From Alphaproteobacteria bacterium (GTDB lineage: Bacteria > Pseudomonadota > Alphaproteobacteria > JABAAW01), in the NCBI GenBank assembly GCA_014237925.1, contig JABACB010000002.1:62028-124817 (forward strand): DNA of 62,790 bases, in the 5' to 3' direction. Below, piece by piece: positions 47,183 to 52,568 of the stretch. Under the pieces are notes generated by a model. That model was given only the letters and a program-made list of their open reading frames with translations. It had not been told where the DNA came from and searched no databases. Made by a program: the position numbers and the translations under genes. How positions within the stretch are numbered: the stretch's first letter is position 1; every line of letters starts with the position of its first letter.

Positions 47183-48208
47183 TTAGCGCAAAACATCCTT
47201 GTTCGATCGCGCCGAGGATTGGGGATGCGATGGCGCAAGGAATTGAGATTGAGATTGAGGATGGGCAGCGCGGTGCTGTTCGACAAGGTGGGCCATATCG
47301 ACCTCCGTATAACGCTGCGTGGCTTTAAGCGAGCTGTGTCCGAGAAGTTTTTGGATAGAGCGCAAGTCTCCCCCCTCCTCCATCAAATGCGTCGCAAAGG
47401 AATGGCGTAGCGCGTGCGGGGTTGCGCTCTGCGGCAAGCCTTGCTGTTCGCGCAAAATCTTCATGCGTTTTTGCACGACGCGCGGATGCAGCCTTTCGCC
47501 GCGAGCTCCGCGAAAGAAGGGTTGCTCGGAAGTTCGCTCGGAAACATGCGTCTTGGTATCGGGACGCTGCTCGCGGTAGTCTTTCAAGGCATCGCACACG
47601 CGCGGCAAGACAGGCACGAGGCGCACCTTGTCGCCTTTGCCGTGGATGCGCAAGCGACGGGGTGTTTCTTTTGTCATGCGTAAGATCTCCTCGTCGTCGA
47701 GCGCGAGGGCTTCGGAGATACGCAGTCCCGCGCCGTAGAGCAGCGTCAGCAGCGCGACATCGCGCGCCTTGACCCAGTCTTGCTGTTCGGCGCACATTCC
47801 CGCTGCTACGATCAGCGCGTGCGTGCGCTCTTGCGAAAGGGGATAGGGCGGCGGCAACTGATGCGGAGGGCGGCGCACGCGAAGGGCGGCGGAGCAGGAG
47901 ATGTTGTAGAGGGTTTGTAGCCTGCGCACAAAGCCTTTTAAAGCCGAAAGTGCGCGAGCAACCGATTGCGCTTGCAAACCCTGTGCGCGCAGTTGCGCCA
48001 TCCACCCGCGCAAGTCTCGCTCTTCGATCTCCGACCATGCCGCCAAGGGGATAGAGCTACCACGGTGGTTTGTGAGAAAACGATCGAAAGCAAGAAGGTC
48101 GCGGCGATAGGCTGAGAGCGTGTGCGGGCTGAGGCGTCGCTCGCTTTCGAGATGGCGACAATAGTCTTCGAGGGCGACGGAAAAGGGAGGGGGCGATGCT
48201 TGGGACAC
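47183..48208 (-). CDS. xerC: Tyrosine recombinase XerC
   Basis: LLYGAGLRISE, GKGDK, TPHALRHSFATHL, LLGH, TQRYT; no integron-integrase insert seen. Confidence 0.9.
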   Translation of the reverse strand: MSQASPPPFSVALEDYCRHLESERRLSPHTLSAYRRDLLAFDRFLTNHRGSSIPLAAWSEIEERDLRGWMAQLRAQGLQAQSVARALSALKGFVRRLQTLYNISCSAALRVRRPPHQLPPPYPLSQERTHALIVAAGMCAEQQDWVKARDVALLTLLYGAGLRISEALALDDEEILRMTKETPRRLRIHGKGDKVRLVPVLPRVCDALKDYREQRPDTKTHVSERTSEQPFFRGARGERLHPRVVQKRMKILREQQGLPQSATPHALRHSFATHLMEEGGDLRSIQKLLGHSSLKATQRYTEVDMAHLVEQHRAAHPQSQSQFLAPSHPQSSARSNKDVLR

Positions 48209-48248
48209 AGAACAGGAGGGGCAAAAATCGCGCCAATCTTACTTTTTG

Positions 48249-48353
48249 TAACGATAGAAACGCAAGATAGCAAGTCTCGTGCGTGTTTGTTGCGTGAGCG
48301 CTATCCAAAAAGCACGAGCGCTAGCGTAGCAGATATATCATGCCGCAACGGAC
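48249..48353. repeat. Direct repeat copy 1 (~105 bp, internally palindromic)
   Basis: Core 48249-48326 matches 49012-49093 at 75/78 nt plus one 4-bp indel; the degenerate tail aligns without gaps. Confidence 0.93.
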
Positions 48354-48473
48354 TTCTAGTGATGTTTTGTTTATGGAAATTACATACGAAAATCCGCAAA
48401 AAAGCAGAAAGAGTCTATGCGTTGTGTGCTTGGTGAACTTTGAGACTGTTTTTGACGGAAAATTATCAGTCGC

Positions 48474-48923
48474 TCATTTCAGGTTGCATTCGTAGAAGAA
48501 GGCATCATCAAGTGATTTGTTTTTTAACTTCATCTTTTTTATTGCGTCTGATGCCATTTTCCAGCAAATTTCCGAGTTTGGATAGACATTAATCTCCTCC
48601 TCTAGCAACACTTTTTCAGCATCTGATTTTGTCGGATCTTCCCAATAAAACTTGGAAAGCACGTGTGGCCTATTAGATTCTCTGATATACCCTTCTTCTA
48701 CTTTATCCTTGCTCATTTGTCCCAATTGGCATTTTACGAGCAGAAACAAAACGATTGCGAAGGGAATCCCGCCAACGACAAAGGTTAAGATGAATTTTGA
48801 CCTGTTTGAAAGAGGCGGTTGGTCTTTGGTAACATCTTTTAGATAATCGGCAATAGATTCTCCGTCTCTTCTTTCCCTAATTTCAGGTTTGGCTTTTTGC
48901 TCGTCTTGATCTTGGTTGCTCAT
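48474..48923 (-). CDS. Low-GC orphan single-pass membrane protein (149 aa)
   Basis: MSNQDQDEQK..FILTFVVGGIPFAIVLFLLVKC..FFYECNLK. Hand counts give 32-37% GC in sampled lines. Confidence 0.8.
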   Translation of the reverse strand: MSNQDQDEQKAKPEIRERRDGESIADYLKDVTKDQPPLSNRSKFILTFVVGGIPFAIVLFLLVKCQLGQMSKDKVEEGYIRESNRPHVLSKFYWEDPTKSDAEKVLLEEEINVYPNSEICWKMASDAIKKMKLKNKSLDDAFFYECNLK

Positions 48924-49011
48924 TATCAAGTCCTTTTTGTTTGGGTTTGATGTTGGGATTGGGGCTGACACTCCAAAGGAGTTGCGAATTCTCGCATGAA
49001 ATTCTCTTTTA

Positions 49012-49120
49012 TAACGATGGAAACGCAAGATAGCAAGTCTCGTGCGTGTTTGTTGCGCGAGCGCGTGCTATCCAAAAAGCACGAGCGCGAGCGCAACATA
49101 TACGCCGTGTGGCAATTGAC
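49012..49120. repeat. Direct repeat copy 2 (~109 bp)
   Basis: See copy 1. Contains GATAGCA/TGCTATC and CTCGTGC/GCACGAG inverted pairs. Confidence 0.93.
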
Positions 49121-49129
49121 ACTGTTGTA

Positions 49130-49436
49130 GCGCGTTTCTGCGAAACGCGCCTGGAGCAGGAAGAGGCTGCGCGCTTGCGCGCAGTTTTTTGCGGGAAAAC
49201 TTCGTCCCCCCTCAGCCCCTCCGCGTGCGCTAGCGCACAGTTTTTTTGCGGGGGAACTTCGTCCCCCCACACCCCCCCGCGTGCGCTAGCGCACGCGACG
49301 CGCGACCGCCTTTTTGTCGCCCAAAGTCCCGTTCCTTGTCTTCTTCCTTGTCCTCCCCCCCGCGCGCGCTGACGCACGCGACGCGCGACCCGCCTTTTTG
49401 TCGCCCAAAGTCCCGTTCCTTGTCTTCTTCCTTGTC
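49130..49436. repeat. Hairpin array: 9-bp stem, 56-bp unit x2, ~83-bp unit x2, 20-bp perfect palindrome
   Basis: GCGCGTTTC-TGC-GAAACGCGC (49130-49150); GGGGGA-ACTTCG-TCCCCC; CGCGTGCGCTAGCGCACGCG (49278-49297). Confidence 0.92.
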
Positions 49437-49448
49437 TTAGGCAAAACT

Positions 49449-50108
49449 TCAAAGGATCGTCTGCTTCGTCTTTTCCCAATCGTCCAAAAACGCCCGCAAG
49501 CCCCTGTCCGTCAAAGGATGCTTATAAAGCGCACGAAAAACCTTCGGCGGCAAGGTCGCCACATGCGCGCCCAAACGCGCCGCCGCCGTGACATGTCCCG
49601 TATGACGCACCGAAGCAACTAACACCTCCGTAGCAAAGTCGTGGGCGCGATAAATATCCAATATCTCCTCAATAAGCTGCAAGCCGTCGTGACCGATGTC
49701 GTCAAGCCTGCCGACAAAAGGCGAGATGAAACTTGCCCCCGCCTTCGCCGCGAGCAAAGCTTGCGCGGACGAGAAGCACAGCGTGACATTGACCGCCGTC
49801 CCCTCACGACTGAGAGCATGACAGCAACGCAAGCCTTCTTCGGTCAGAGGAACCTTGACCGCAACATTCTTCGCAATCGCCGCCAGTGCCTTGCCCTCCT
49901 CCAGCATGCCATCGAAGGAAGTGGCGGTCACCTCGGCGCTCACAGGACCCTCGACGACAGCACACAGCTCCTTGATGCGCTCATGAATCGACGCACCCGA
50001 TTGCGCGATCAACGACGGATTCGTCGTCACCCCATCGATAAGCCCAAGCCCGCTCTTGACGAGCGCAGACACCTCGCTAACATCGGCAGAGTCGATGAAC
50101 AACTTCAT
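49449..50108 (-). CDS. fsa: Transaldolase / fructose-6-phosphate aldolase (TalC/Fsa type)
   Basis: [42 protein letters not shown]. Confidence 0.96.
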
Positions 50109-50198
50109 CCCACGCTTGTGCGACACAGACCGACGAAAGTCAAGCAGATGAAGGTCAAGCAGATGAAGATCGAGCAGATGAAGATCGAGCAGGAGGAG

Positions 50199-52568
50199 AT
50201 GAAACACGCTGAGACGAGAGCCGAGATGACAACGCCTTGTTCGCCGCCTTGTTCGCCGACCGCAGAGCTGCTCGTCCTTTCGCCACGCCTCGACCAGCTC
50301 TTCTCCTACGCCTGCCCGCAAGAGATAGTTTGCTCTCGCGTTCTCGAAGAAGGCGCTCTGTTTCGCGTTCCGTTCGGCAGCAAAGAGGTTCTCGCCGTCG
50401 TGTGGCGCGTGGTCGAAAGCTCCCTGCCGCCCGCGCGTCGCCTGAAATCGCTGACGGCAGCGATGCGCCAAGAGCTGCCGCCCTTACAAGCAGACCTCCG
50501 CGCCTTCATCGATCGATTCGCCGCCTACACCATGACCCCGCGCGGACGCGTGTTGAAAAGCGTCTTCGCATCGGCGCTCAACGCAGGGCAACCGCCGCGC
50601 AAGAAAGAGAGACGCGCTTTTCGTATCACCGCGAAAGGCGTAGAAGAACATCTGCAAACAAAAACGACAAGCAAAACAACACAAAAAACCCGCCTGCTCG
50701 CCATGCTGGCGCAGAATTCGATGCGCCCGCATCAAGATTTTTTGCCAAAAGACTTGTCGCACGAAGCTTTGTCGCACGAAGCTTCGTCGCGCGAAGATTT
50801 GCTGAGCGAAGGCATCTCGGCTGCCGTCTTGCGTCGCTGTCGCGCGTTGGAGCTGGTCGAAGAAATTTCGCTTATATCCCCCCCCGTACCACCTCCTACG
50901 CGATCGGCTTCTCTCGCAACGCCCTCGCCCTCGCCGTTTTGCGTCTTGCCGCGCGAATCTCCGCTCGAAAAAGAACAGCAGGAGGCAGCCTATGAGCTCT
51001 GCTCGCTTTGCCAAGAAGGCAAGTTTACAACAGTCCTGCTCGACGGCGAAACAGGCTCCGGCAAAACAGAGGTGTACTTCGAAGCGGTCGCAACCTGTCT
51101 GCAAGCAGGCAAACAAGTGCTGCTTATGCTGCCGGAGATTGCTCTCTCGGTGCGTTTCGCCGAACGTTTTCACAAACGATTCGGAACGGAAGCGCTGCTC
51201 TGCCACTCCGCCCTGTCCGCCCGCGCGCGGCGCGCGGCGTGGAACGAGATCGCCTGCGGCAAGGCACGCGCCGTCTTGGGAGCGCGTAGCGCACTCTTCC
51301 TCCCATTTTGCAACTTGGGACTCGTCGTCGTCGACGAAGAACACGACCACGCCTACAAACAAGAAGAAGGCATCGTCTATCACGCGCGCGATATGGCGGT
51401 GTTGCGCGCGCAAAAAGCGGGCTGCCTCGTCGTGCTCGTGAGCGCGACCCCGTCGCTCGAAAGCTGGCACAACGCCGAGTGCGGCAAGTATCGTCGTCTG
51501 GTGTTGCCGCATCGCTTCGGCAGAGCGACTCTGCCCAAGGTCACCCTCGTAGACTTGCGCAAAGAAGCCAGCGCCGCGAAGACAGGCGAACCCCTCCTGA
51601 CACCGTCCCTCTGCACCCGCATCGAACAGACGCTCTCGCGCAAGGAGCAAGTGCTGATCTTTCTCAACCGCCGAGGCTATGCACCGCTGCTGTTATGCAA
51701 TCGCTGTGGCGCGCGCCTCTCCTGCCGCTTCTGCAACGCCCTCTTGGTCGAACATCGCGCGTTTGTGCGCGTTGTCTGCCACCACTGCGACTTTTCGATG
51801 CCGACACCGCAAATCTGCCCCTCCTGCAATGCGGAGGGGTCTCTGAAGGCGTTCGGCGTGGGTGTCGAGCGGCTTGCGGAGGCGTTGCAAAAACTTTTTC
51901 CGAAAGCTCGCCTGCAACTCCTCAGCTCGGATACGAAGGATCCGCAAGCGGTCGTGCGTGCTTTCGAAGAAGGTCGCTGCAACCTTGTGGTGGGAACGCA
52001 AATGCTGGCGAAAGGCTACCACTTCCCTCATCTGACTTTGGTCGGCATCGTCAATGCCGACTTGGGACTTTCGGGCGGCGACCCGCGCGCCTTCGAACGT
52101 TGCTACCAGCTGCTACACCAAGTTGCCGGACGAGCGGGGCGGGGCGCGAAGAAGGGCGAGGTTGTCGTTCAAACGACGGAGCCGCACTCGACGGCGTTGC
52201 GCGCCTTGCAGACCTTCGACCGCGACAGCTTTTTGAAAAGCGAGGTGCTTGCGCGCTCCGACACAAGGCACAACAGCTTTTGGCCGCCCTTTGCCCGTCT
52301 CGCCGCCGTCGTTGTGAGTTCGAAGGAGAAACGTCGTCTCGATATTTTTGCGCAGCGCTTGTACGAGGCTTTCCCCGTATCGTCTAGGGTCGAATGTTTC
52401 GGTCCTGCCGCACCCCCTCTGTCGCCGCTGCGCGGACGTCATCGTCTTCGTTTCTTGTTGCGCACGCGCACCCAACCCCTGCAACCCCTGCTCGCGCGTT
52501 GGCTTGCGTGCAAGATACCCGAAGACGTGCGCCTCAAGATCGATATCGATCCCTACAGCTTTCTTTGA
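50199..52568 (+). CDS. priA: Primosomal protein N'
   Basis: [30 protein letters not shown], Zn-binding Cys clusters, QVAGRAGR; SD AGGAGGAG. Confidence 0.96.

Follow-up and report, generated by a model that had tools for sequence, protein, structure and literature searches.

A low-GC one-gene islet between direct repeats upstream of xerC in an uncultured alphaproteobacterium: a candidate insertion with long target duplication

Introduction

Insertion with long target duplication, reportedly described by Nobusato et al. in 2000 (Gene 259:99), is already known for restriction genes, and we regard the locus described here as a probable further case of it and not as a new cassette system. The locus lies in a 62,790-nt stretch of the genome of an uncultured alphaproteobacterium (hereafter the window) and consists of a low-GC insert with a single gene for a 149-aa protein, placed between two direct repeats in the spacer between xerC and the transaldolase gene tal. 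Furuta, Abe and Kobayashi (2010) found restriction-modification (RM) genes that had entered genomes without mobility genes and with target duplications whose length varied from 30 to ~420 bp. They divided flanking repeats into three classes, namely those due to site-specific recombination, those due to long target duplication and those between which an insertion fell by chance; as the cause they suspected double-strand breakage, and they proposed a cycle in which the gene inserts, amplifies and is released (PMC2853133).

Other described systems share traits with the locus. Repetitive extragenic palindromes (REPs), their assemblies into bacterial interspersed mosaic elements (BIMEs) and the use of REPs as insertion targets were treated by Tobes and Pareja in 2006 (PMC1525189). 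The minimal mobile elements of Neisseria are exchanged by homologous recombination in conserved flanks and carry no flanking duplications (PMC3787668, PMC1797815). Integron cassettes pair a gene with an imperfect palindrome, attC. A preliminary description of the window read the locus as a repeat-delimited gene cassette, apparently of no standard class, whose palindromes might act as folded single-stranded DNA (ssDNA) recombination sites.

The window is part of contig C222 (124.8 kb) of a metagenome-assembled genome (MAG; G000) of 1.97 Mb in 409 contigs, with a mean GC content of 0.5625. We compared it with its six congeners (G001 to G006), so that the genus comparison covers seven genomes of uncultured Alphaproteobacteria.

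Results

A low-GC insert fills the interval between two local direct repeats

GC content was 0.37-0.41 over positions 48350-48950 versus ~0.60 on both sides, and the insert between the repeats is the window's sole island with a GC content below 0.42 over at least 350 nt. No normal-GC spacer is left between the insert and either repeat copy. The GC profile, together with the domain searches given below, bore out the statement of the preliminary description that the window's only low-GC patch holds one 149-aa open reading frame (ORF) with a single transmembrane (TM) helix and no recognisable motif.

Repeat search and MAFFT alignment showed that the repeat unit is ~105 nt long (110-114 nt with its tail) and that its two copies lie in direct orientation. 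The first 58 nt of the copies are 95% identical; they are followed by a 4-nt indel (GCGT, in copy 2 only), by 22 identical nt and then by a tail of ~21 nt with 8 differences, 6 of which are transitions. BLAST of the two island flanks against each other gave an alignment of 87 columns with 90.8% identity (E=1e-27), and the longest perfect block between the copies measures 38 nt (48257-48294 = 49020-49057). The near-identical copies, the 4-bp indel and the transition-rich tail that had been noted earlier are thus confirmed. Similarity in register also extended leftward from the repeat to the xerC start codon, but not significantly (shuffle p=0.07).

The preliminary description had proposed that the repeat be searched against the whole genome, and the outcome differed between its two parts. 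The complete unit occurs in two copies only in G000, both at this locus, and its palindromic part of 54 nt is present in at least 45 copies. This right-hand part of each unit, ~54 nt, is a REP-like palindrome with the consensus GTCTGTTGCGCGAGCGCGTGCTATCCAAAAAGCACAAGCGCGAGCGCAACAGAC. The left ~41 nt occur in G000 only in these two copies; their REP-proximal end weakly resembles sequence in a few of the longer copies of the REP. Set against the family consensus, the REPs of copies 1 and 2 share the private variants GTTTG and GCACGAG. Since the copies share both ~41 nt of unique sequence and private REP variants, they are locally made copies of each other and not independent REP insertions. By eye, a promoter-like sequence can be read in each copy (Table 1); a scan for consensus promoters and terminators found nothing above shuffles and did not call this candidate, and an Rfam search of 47.9-49.6 kb returned sub-threshold noise only.

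Homologs of the 149-aa gene lie between unrelated direct repeats

The product of the 149-aa gene is a small membrane protein with a predicted N-in/C-out topology. Its start ATG was fixed at 48923 by an N-terminal MSNQ shared with the homolog in G004, and on the strength of this conserved N-terminus we rejected a translational fusion of the ORF with a duplicate of the xerC start, represented by the in-frame GTG at 48971. Sequence searches of Pfam, NCBIfam, PADLOC and PDB gave no match to the protein. In PHROGs, one family member only had a weak match to an Rz-like spanin (E=0.0036), which probably reflects its composition of coiled coil and TM helix. An AF2 model built on the 3-sequence alignment of the family contained a helix at residues 42-82, with a pLDDT of only 58, too poor for a fold search.

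The gene has no paralogs in G000, and only two relatives of the protein were found, both intact and of the same layout, in G004 (145 aa) and G005 (147 aa). The C-terminal domains of all three members share the pattern PHxL...SDAxK...VYPN...C. A search of 5.8e9 proteins returned the query itself only; a profile search of 1.84e9 representatives, tblastn against phages and plasmids, and scans of viral, metagenome and genome contigs gave no relatives beyond those in G004 and G005, an exact-protein lookup gave nothing, and a 27-nt repeat pattern had no match in metagenome contigs.

Neither homolog lies near xerC. The one in G004 stands downstream of argF and the one in G005 between ilvA and a HIT-family gene, each within low-GC DNA and each bracketed by direct repeats of its own. 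In G004 the repeats are 73 nt long, 92% identical and 772 nt apart, and they consist of the last ~22 codons of argF with its stop codon. Those in G005 are copies of a spacer, at least 40 nt long, 85% identical and 509 nt apart. The flanking repeats at the three loci have no sequence relation to one another, those in G004 and G005 are not palindromic, and outside the coding sequence no ends are common to the three inserts. At the site of the G005 homolog, G000 has no insert, only 5 nt separating its ilvA from the HIT gene. In G000 the argF 3′ end is single-copy, with a different low-GC gene after it, which identifies the target of the G004 homolog as single-copy sequence. Of the two argF ends in G004, copy 2 shares ATCTTGCT.TGG with the argF of G000, and copy 1 has 4 clustered synonymous changes.

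Because the loci differ, the repeats are unrelated, the inserts have no ends in common and the corresponding G000 sites lack the gene, these data argue for three independent insertions, each of which duplicated the local target sequence. To judge from these comparisons, the 149-aa gene is real, lineage-restricted and mobile.

The palindrome belongs to a dispersed REP-like family

The REP-like family gave 46 BLAST matches in G000, 41 loci that could be aligned in register, and 45 non-overlapping nhmmer hits, a lower bound on its copy number in this 1.97-Mb genome. Copies were solitary at nearly all of ~38 loci. Across 33 full-length copies the consensus hairpin has 11 pairs, and at 5 of these both sides have changed in a compensatory way. 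Four of the seven genus genomes carry the family, the congeners with 34 (G003), 15 (G004) and 6 (G002) BLAST hits; it was found neither in G001, G005 and G006 nor in genomes outside the genus, and it has no match in Rfam. According to the preliminary description both repeat copies can fold. This holds for copy 2, whose 63-nt core folds at -20.2 kcal/mol (z=-3.8 versus shuffles), but not for copy 1, which with a 4-nt deletion in one arm folds no better than shuffles (-8.3 kcal/mol, z=-0.2).

Six other same-orientation REP pairs in G000 show a local duplication that reaches 81-231 nt beyond the REP, with a spacing of 90-430 nt and normal GC content between the copies; they include a head-to-tail 90-nt tandem on contig C199. 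Low-GC patches were found near 45% of REP copies versus 8% of random positions, and 12 of the 66 low-GC islands in G000 lie within 400 nt of a REP. The other REP-adjacent islets in G000 have a REP on one side only. Such islets lie at C398:26885-27478, C333:86550-87452, C349:3395-4976 and C365:59246-59806, and their cargo comprises a GIY-YIG nuclease, an HNH endonuclease, a methyltransferase-like gene that may have a restriction partner, and an unassigned 186-aa ORF. Nuclease genes that adjoin palindromes could relate to the break footprint considered below.

The family resembles REP/BIME palindromes in that it is an imperfect palindrome of ~54 nt, intergenic, present in at least 45 copies, restricted to a lineage and with a hairpin kept by compensatory changes, and in that mobile or foreign DNA tends to adjoin its copies. 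It differs in that no RAYT/Y1 transposase was found in G000 and the adjoining DNA consists of bare genes and not of insertion sequences; on our reading, moreover, the REP of this locus is part of the duplicated target and not the mobile unit.

REP sites and low-GC islets coincide with GC-skew flips

Immediately to the left of REP sites the plus-strand GC skew was +0.31 and immediately to the right -0.24, and it faded within ~2 kb; random sites gave 0.01 ± 0.03. The sign of this mirror-image pattern did not depend on the strand of the flanking genes (left +0.23/+0.17, right -0.23/-0.17). Skew flips were also found at 50-67% of low-GC islets versus 8% of random positions, including islets that have no REP of the family nearby, and the window locus (47600-49600) shows such a flip too. 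The position of REPs and low-GC islets at skew flips suggests that these are break-prone sites. From established chemistry, such a pattern would be expected if breakage recurs, with 5′-3′ resection and with deamination of the 3′ strand that survives.

Recombinases and their sites

The insert holds no mobility gene, the 149-aa ORF being alone in it, and the neighbouring recombinase is the housekeeping xerC. XerC and XerD were the only tyrosine recombinases found in G000, with no IntI among them: integron-integrase models covered only the catalytic C-terminus of these two proteins (96-108 bits versus a cut-off of 265), and their best NCBIfam matches were XerC and XerD/PRK00283. The RAYT/Y1 (HUH) transposase family PF01797 was absent from G000, in a search whose control was positive in 6 of 14 reference genomes. 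No dif-like 28-nt site was present within 8 mismatches in 48100-49500, and neither a reverse transcriptase (RVT_1) nor Ku was detected in any of the seven genus genomes. An integron, an integrative mobile element exploiting Xer (IMEX), an HUH element, retro-insertion and Ku-dependent end-joining are not supported, since the respective enzymes or sites were not found. An IS200/IS605-type or other transposon, or a miniature inverted-repeat transposable element (MITE), is likewise not supported: there is no Y1 transposase, the inserts have no common ends, and the flanking repeats are long and variable in length.

The locus is like an integron cassette in that a single promoterless-looking gene has an imperfect palindrome and the gene for a tyrosine recombinase beside it. 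It is unlike one in that IntI, attI and an array are all lacking and its palindrome is a genome-wide REP; the flanking repeats match each other at any one locus but have no relation from locus to locus, and attC sites behave in the opposite way. Elsewhere in G000, two near-identical dif-like sites (TAGGCGCATAAG-N6-TTATGGAAAAT) occur at C365:62343 and C316:277, one of them on a 516-nt contig, and these could mark an XerCD-integrated element.

The tal-xerC spacer and its neighbours

The features of the locus are collected in Table 1. The 341-aa XerC has its best NCBIfam match to TIGR02224 XerC (293 bits, under the equivalog cut-off of 335), and xerC orthologs are present in all six congeners. 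The tal-xerC spacer measures 1240 nt in G000. In G002, G005 and G006 tal also adjoins xerC, with a spacer of 43-150 nt and neither repeat unit nor insert. The spacer of G004 holds a 2.45-kb islet with DNA methyltransferase-like genes, and that of G003, 3.1 kb long, a Sel1-repeat gene between long inverted repeat arrays. G000, G003 and G004 have ~25 conserved nt beside xerC (48220-48243 in the window), right after which the repeat unit starts; apart from these ~25 nt the G003 and G004 spacers share nothing with that of G000 except, in G003, a REP, which lies ~200 nt upstream of xerC.

Because it is empty in three congeners and holds different foreign genes in two, the tal-xerC spacer appears from this comparison to be a hot spot for foreign DNA, and the adjacency of xerC is best read as that of a hot-spot spacer and not as a sign of XerC action here. 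One intergenic site with varied cargo or none across the genus, in genomes rich in small repeats, recalls the minimal mobile elements of Neisseria. The present comparison is, however, between species and not strains, and a flanking duplication is present here.

Table 1. Positions of the features of the tal-xerC locus in the window
Feature	Position	Strand	Remarks
xerC, 341 aa	47183..48208	-	Pfam Phage_integrase + SAM_1; host gene directly downstream of the duplicated segment
Direct-repeat copy 1 (xerC-proximal)	48244-48353	.	~41 nt locus-specific + degenerate REP + diverged tail
Sigma-70-like promoter candidate for xerC, TTGCTA-17 nt-TACAAA	48245..48273	-	Putative, read by eye
REP-like palindrome of copy 1, degenerate, 4-nt deletion in 5′ arm	48285..48333	+	nhmmer 42.8 bits
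Low-GC insert, ~650 nt, GC ~0.38	48354..49006	.	Fills the interval between the repeat copies exactly
149-aa gene	48474..48923	-	Only ORF in the insert; polar N-terminus, one TM helix, ~70-aa C-terminal domain
Direct-repeat copy 2 (distal)	49007-49120	.	Carries a well-formed REP
Duplicate of the candidate promoter, TTGCTA-17 nt-TATAAA, upstream of the 149-aa gene	49008-49036	-	Putative, read by eye
REP-like palindrome of copy 2, near-consensus	49048..49100	+	nhmmer 63.5 bits
Rest of spacer: other dispersed repeats, hairpin GCGTTTCTGCGAAACGC + C-rich units of 56 and 83 nt	49121..49448	.	Repeat search
Transaldolase/fructose-6-phosphate aldolase (tal)	49449..50111	-	Pfam TAL_FSA 7.6e-60; other conserved spacer border

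Copies of the repeat units in the tal-proximal rest of the spacer occur in the flanks of REP loci elsewhere; the hairpin GCGTTTCTGCGAAACGC recurs on C264 and at C365:82290, and the C-rich 56- and 83-nt units at C199:3138. Window positions 50132-50206, which separate priA from the start of tal, hold four 15-nt units (GATGAAGATCGAGCA-like) in tandem. The G003 spacer (L045:2590-5279) has a 554-aa Sel1-repeat gene inside inverted repeats with arms of 154 nt that are 96% complementary; these are arrays of ~110-nt units with the palindrome GCGCGAGGC-TTGCCTCGCGC, a second REP family common to the genus. The G004 spacer (L044:3083-5073) holds methyltransferase-like genes of 309 aa (SPPYW motif) and 213 aa (DPPW) and a 170-aa ORF, and this islet (GC 0.30-0.46) has no flanking repeats. 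In G000, xerD is also directly followed by a low-GC islet (C244:16330-18289), with a 157-aa ORF and a 149-aa antitoxin-like ORF with a SocA/Panacea domain (Pfam 1.2e-17). The occurrence of islets beside both Xer genes may be coincidence.

Flanking repeats are rare among low-GC islets

Among the 66 low-GC islands on G000 contigs of at least 5 kb, only that of the window has a long flanking repeat. In G004 (1.6 Mb, 122 islands) there is, beyond the member of the 149-aa family, one good case and one weak case (37 nt). In the good case (G004 C2:218353-220681) a low-GC gene for a 666-aa membrane protein stands between direct repeats of 107-120 nt that are 78% identical and that are copies of the sequence upstream of the following gene; long target duplication thus has another case in the genus, unrelated to the first. 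The 1.2 Mb of G003 that were scanned contained no islets with flanking repeats except an apparent one in an array of tandem glycosyltransferase paralogs. This apparent case and two in G004 were rejected, being tandem glycosyltransferase paralogs instead: the arrays (G004 C2:1556300-1562800 and G003 C1:811764-814535) consist of five to six family-2 glycosyltransferase genes, which are paralogs with 69-81% identity and have a below-average GC content.

Outside the 149-aa family, flanking repeats were thus found in ~2 cases among the 188 islands of G000 and G004, or ~1%, compared with three of three occurrences for the family. This rate could mean either that the family has an affinity for the long-target-duplication route or that its members are the newest arrivals and older scars have decayed. 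Many of the short contigs (0.5-2 kb) of G000, such as C157 and C264, are low in GC, and some have a terminal REP. The assembly is probably interrupted at repeat-flanked islets, which makes counts of such structures in the MAG lower bounds.

Discussion

Taken together, these data lead us to favor, with moderate confidence, the reading of the window locus in which insertion with long target duplication brought a one-gene islet, acquired horizontally, into the repeat-rich, break-prone tal-xerC spacer. The flanking repeat is most likely a duplicated target because the homologs are bracketed by unrelated local repeats, and a palindrome would lie within it because a REP was already resident at the target. 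The likeness to the published cases is close: a short foreign insert of lower GC content carries no mobility gene; the direct repeats exceed 30 bp and are variable (40-110 nt here, 30 to ~420 bp in the published cases); they are local target sequence, different at each locus and often overlapping the end of a neighbouring gene; and double-strand breakage is suspected. The locus differs from those cases in that its cargo is a small single-TM protein and not an RM, McrA-type or other DNA-cutting gene, in that a single gene family bears the scar in each of its three occurrences, in that the sites coincide with the mirror-image mutation footprint, and in that the window target includes a multi-copy REP, a single-copy target being documented for the G004 homolog only.

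We propose that ~100 nt of the pre-existing spacer upstream of xerC would have been copied to both sides of the 650-nt insert, the target stretch having comprised ~41 nt of unique sequence, one resident REP hairpin and a short tail. Neither an element-encoded nor a dedicated recombinase would have taken part, and the palindrome would not have been a recombination site borne by a cassette. Most probably, the host would have been repairing a break, or staggered nicks, at the fragile REP site and would have captured or copied foreign DNA in the process. As a result, xerC and the new gene may each keep a copy of the promoter-like upstream sequence, and the 38-nt and 22-nt identical blocks could permit RecA-dependent loss or amplification of the gene.

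Several points weigh against this interpretation. No genome has an unduplicated form of the G000 spacer, the spacers of the congeners being too diverged or too short. The repeat includes a multi-copy element, the REP, so that chance insertion between repeats keeps some probability. The published cargo consists of DNA-cutting or addictive genes and there is no nuclease here, and the scar rate of three in three is left unexplained. G000 is 86% complete with 3% contamination, so the absences of enzymes from it are not absolute, and the break-repair step and the role of the promoter are themselves proposals drawn from the sequence.

Chance insertion would mean that the REP-bearing stretch upstream of xerC was already duplicated locally and that the foreign gene landed later between the copies. 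It is one of the three classes of flanking repeats of Furuta et al. (PMC2853133), and G000 offers both ingredients, with six other REP pairs duplicated locally over 81-231 nt beyond the REP and 12 of 66 low-GC islands within 400 nt of a REP. Nevertheless, we consider it unlikely: the gene would have had to hit the exact junction of the copies, as no normal-GC spacer is left on either side, all other REP-adjacent islets have a one-sided REP, and the flanking repeats of both homologs, one of them of coding sequence, are not predicted. A mobile cassette of the Campbell type would instead be a circle with the gene and one local segment, which enters by a single RecA crossover, is excised via the repeats and spreads between related strains. 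The structure is as a single crossover would give, the 38-nt perfect block would serve RecA, the insert-amplify-release cycle of Furuta et al. is of this kind (PMC2853133), and the polymorphisms of the argF ends in G004 are distributed as for a crossover of donor and recipient. This argument from polymorphism, however, uses ~6 sites, the homology is short (40-100 nt), and how the first circle gained host sequence at three unrelated loci is not explained; we judge such a cassette decidedly unlikely.

The idea put forward in the preliminary description, a site-specific cassette system acting through folded ssDNA palindromes (attC-like, XerC/CTXphi-like or HUH/RAYT-like), drew on the imperfect palindrome in the repeats and the adjacent xerC, to which the low-GC islet beside xerD may be added. 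It is now largely refuted, and we hold it to be very improbable: the palindrome is a 45-copy, mostly solitary REP whose fold is lost in copy 1; the flanking repeats of the homologs are unrelated to it and non-palindromic, and the homologs themselves lie away from xerC; and no IntI (96-108 bits versus 265), no Y1 transposase and no dif-like site within 8 mismatches was found. What stands of that description is a foreign-looking, repeat-delimited gene that fits no standard recombinase-driven class; the palindromes as folded recombination sites do not. An assembly artefact, in which a low-GC fragment of another organism was joined at a collapsed repeat, might be suspected in a fragmented MAG (409 contigs, 3% contamination) in which many short low-GC contigs end in REPs (C157, C264). 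It is, however, scarcely credible, since an indel and several substituted positions distinguish the copies, which are thus no collapsed repeat, the contig is 124.8 kb long, and two independent assemblies, of which one is a 1.6-Mb contig, have the same layout of a gene between local repeats.

Beyond the single locus, a bolder and rather unlikely proposal is that the 149-aa family is a minimal selfish gene without a recombinase, which spreads in the genus by exploiting recurrent breakage of palindromic repeats and other fragile sites; its insertion by host repair would come with a target duplication of 40-110 nt, and this would then allow excision, amplification and transfer. If true, it would be the first non-nuclease cargo that habitually uses the long-target-duplication route, and the mirror-image mutation footprint would be the first physical trace of the long-suspected breaks.

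The analysis removes a false lead, in that there is no new integron-like or XerC-driven cassette system at the window locus, and adds a clean case to a 25-year-old unexplained phenomenon, the entry of genes with long, variable target duplications and no recombinase. Its informative features are a cargo that does not cut DNA, a scar in all three known occurrences, and sites at palindromic repeats with an orientation-independent skew flip. If the link between REPs and breakage holds, the genus would be a natural system in which to test long target duplication as a by-product of break repair at fragile hairpins.

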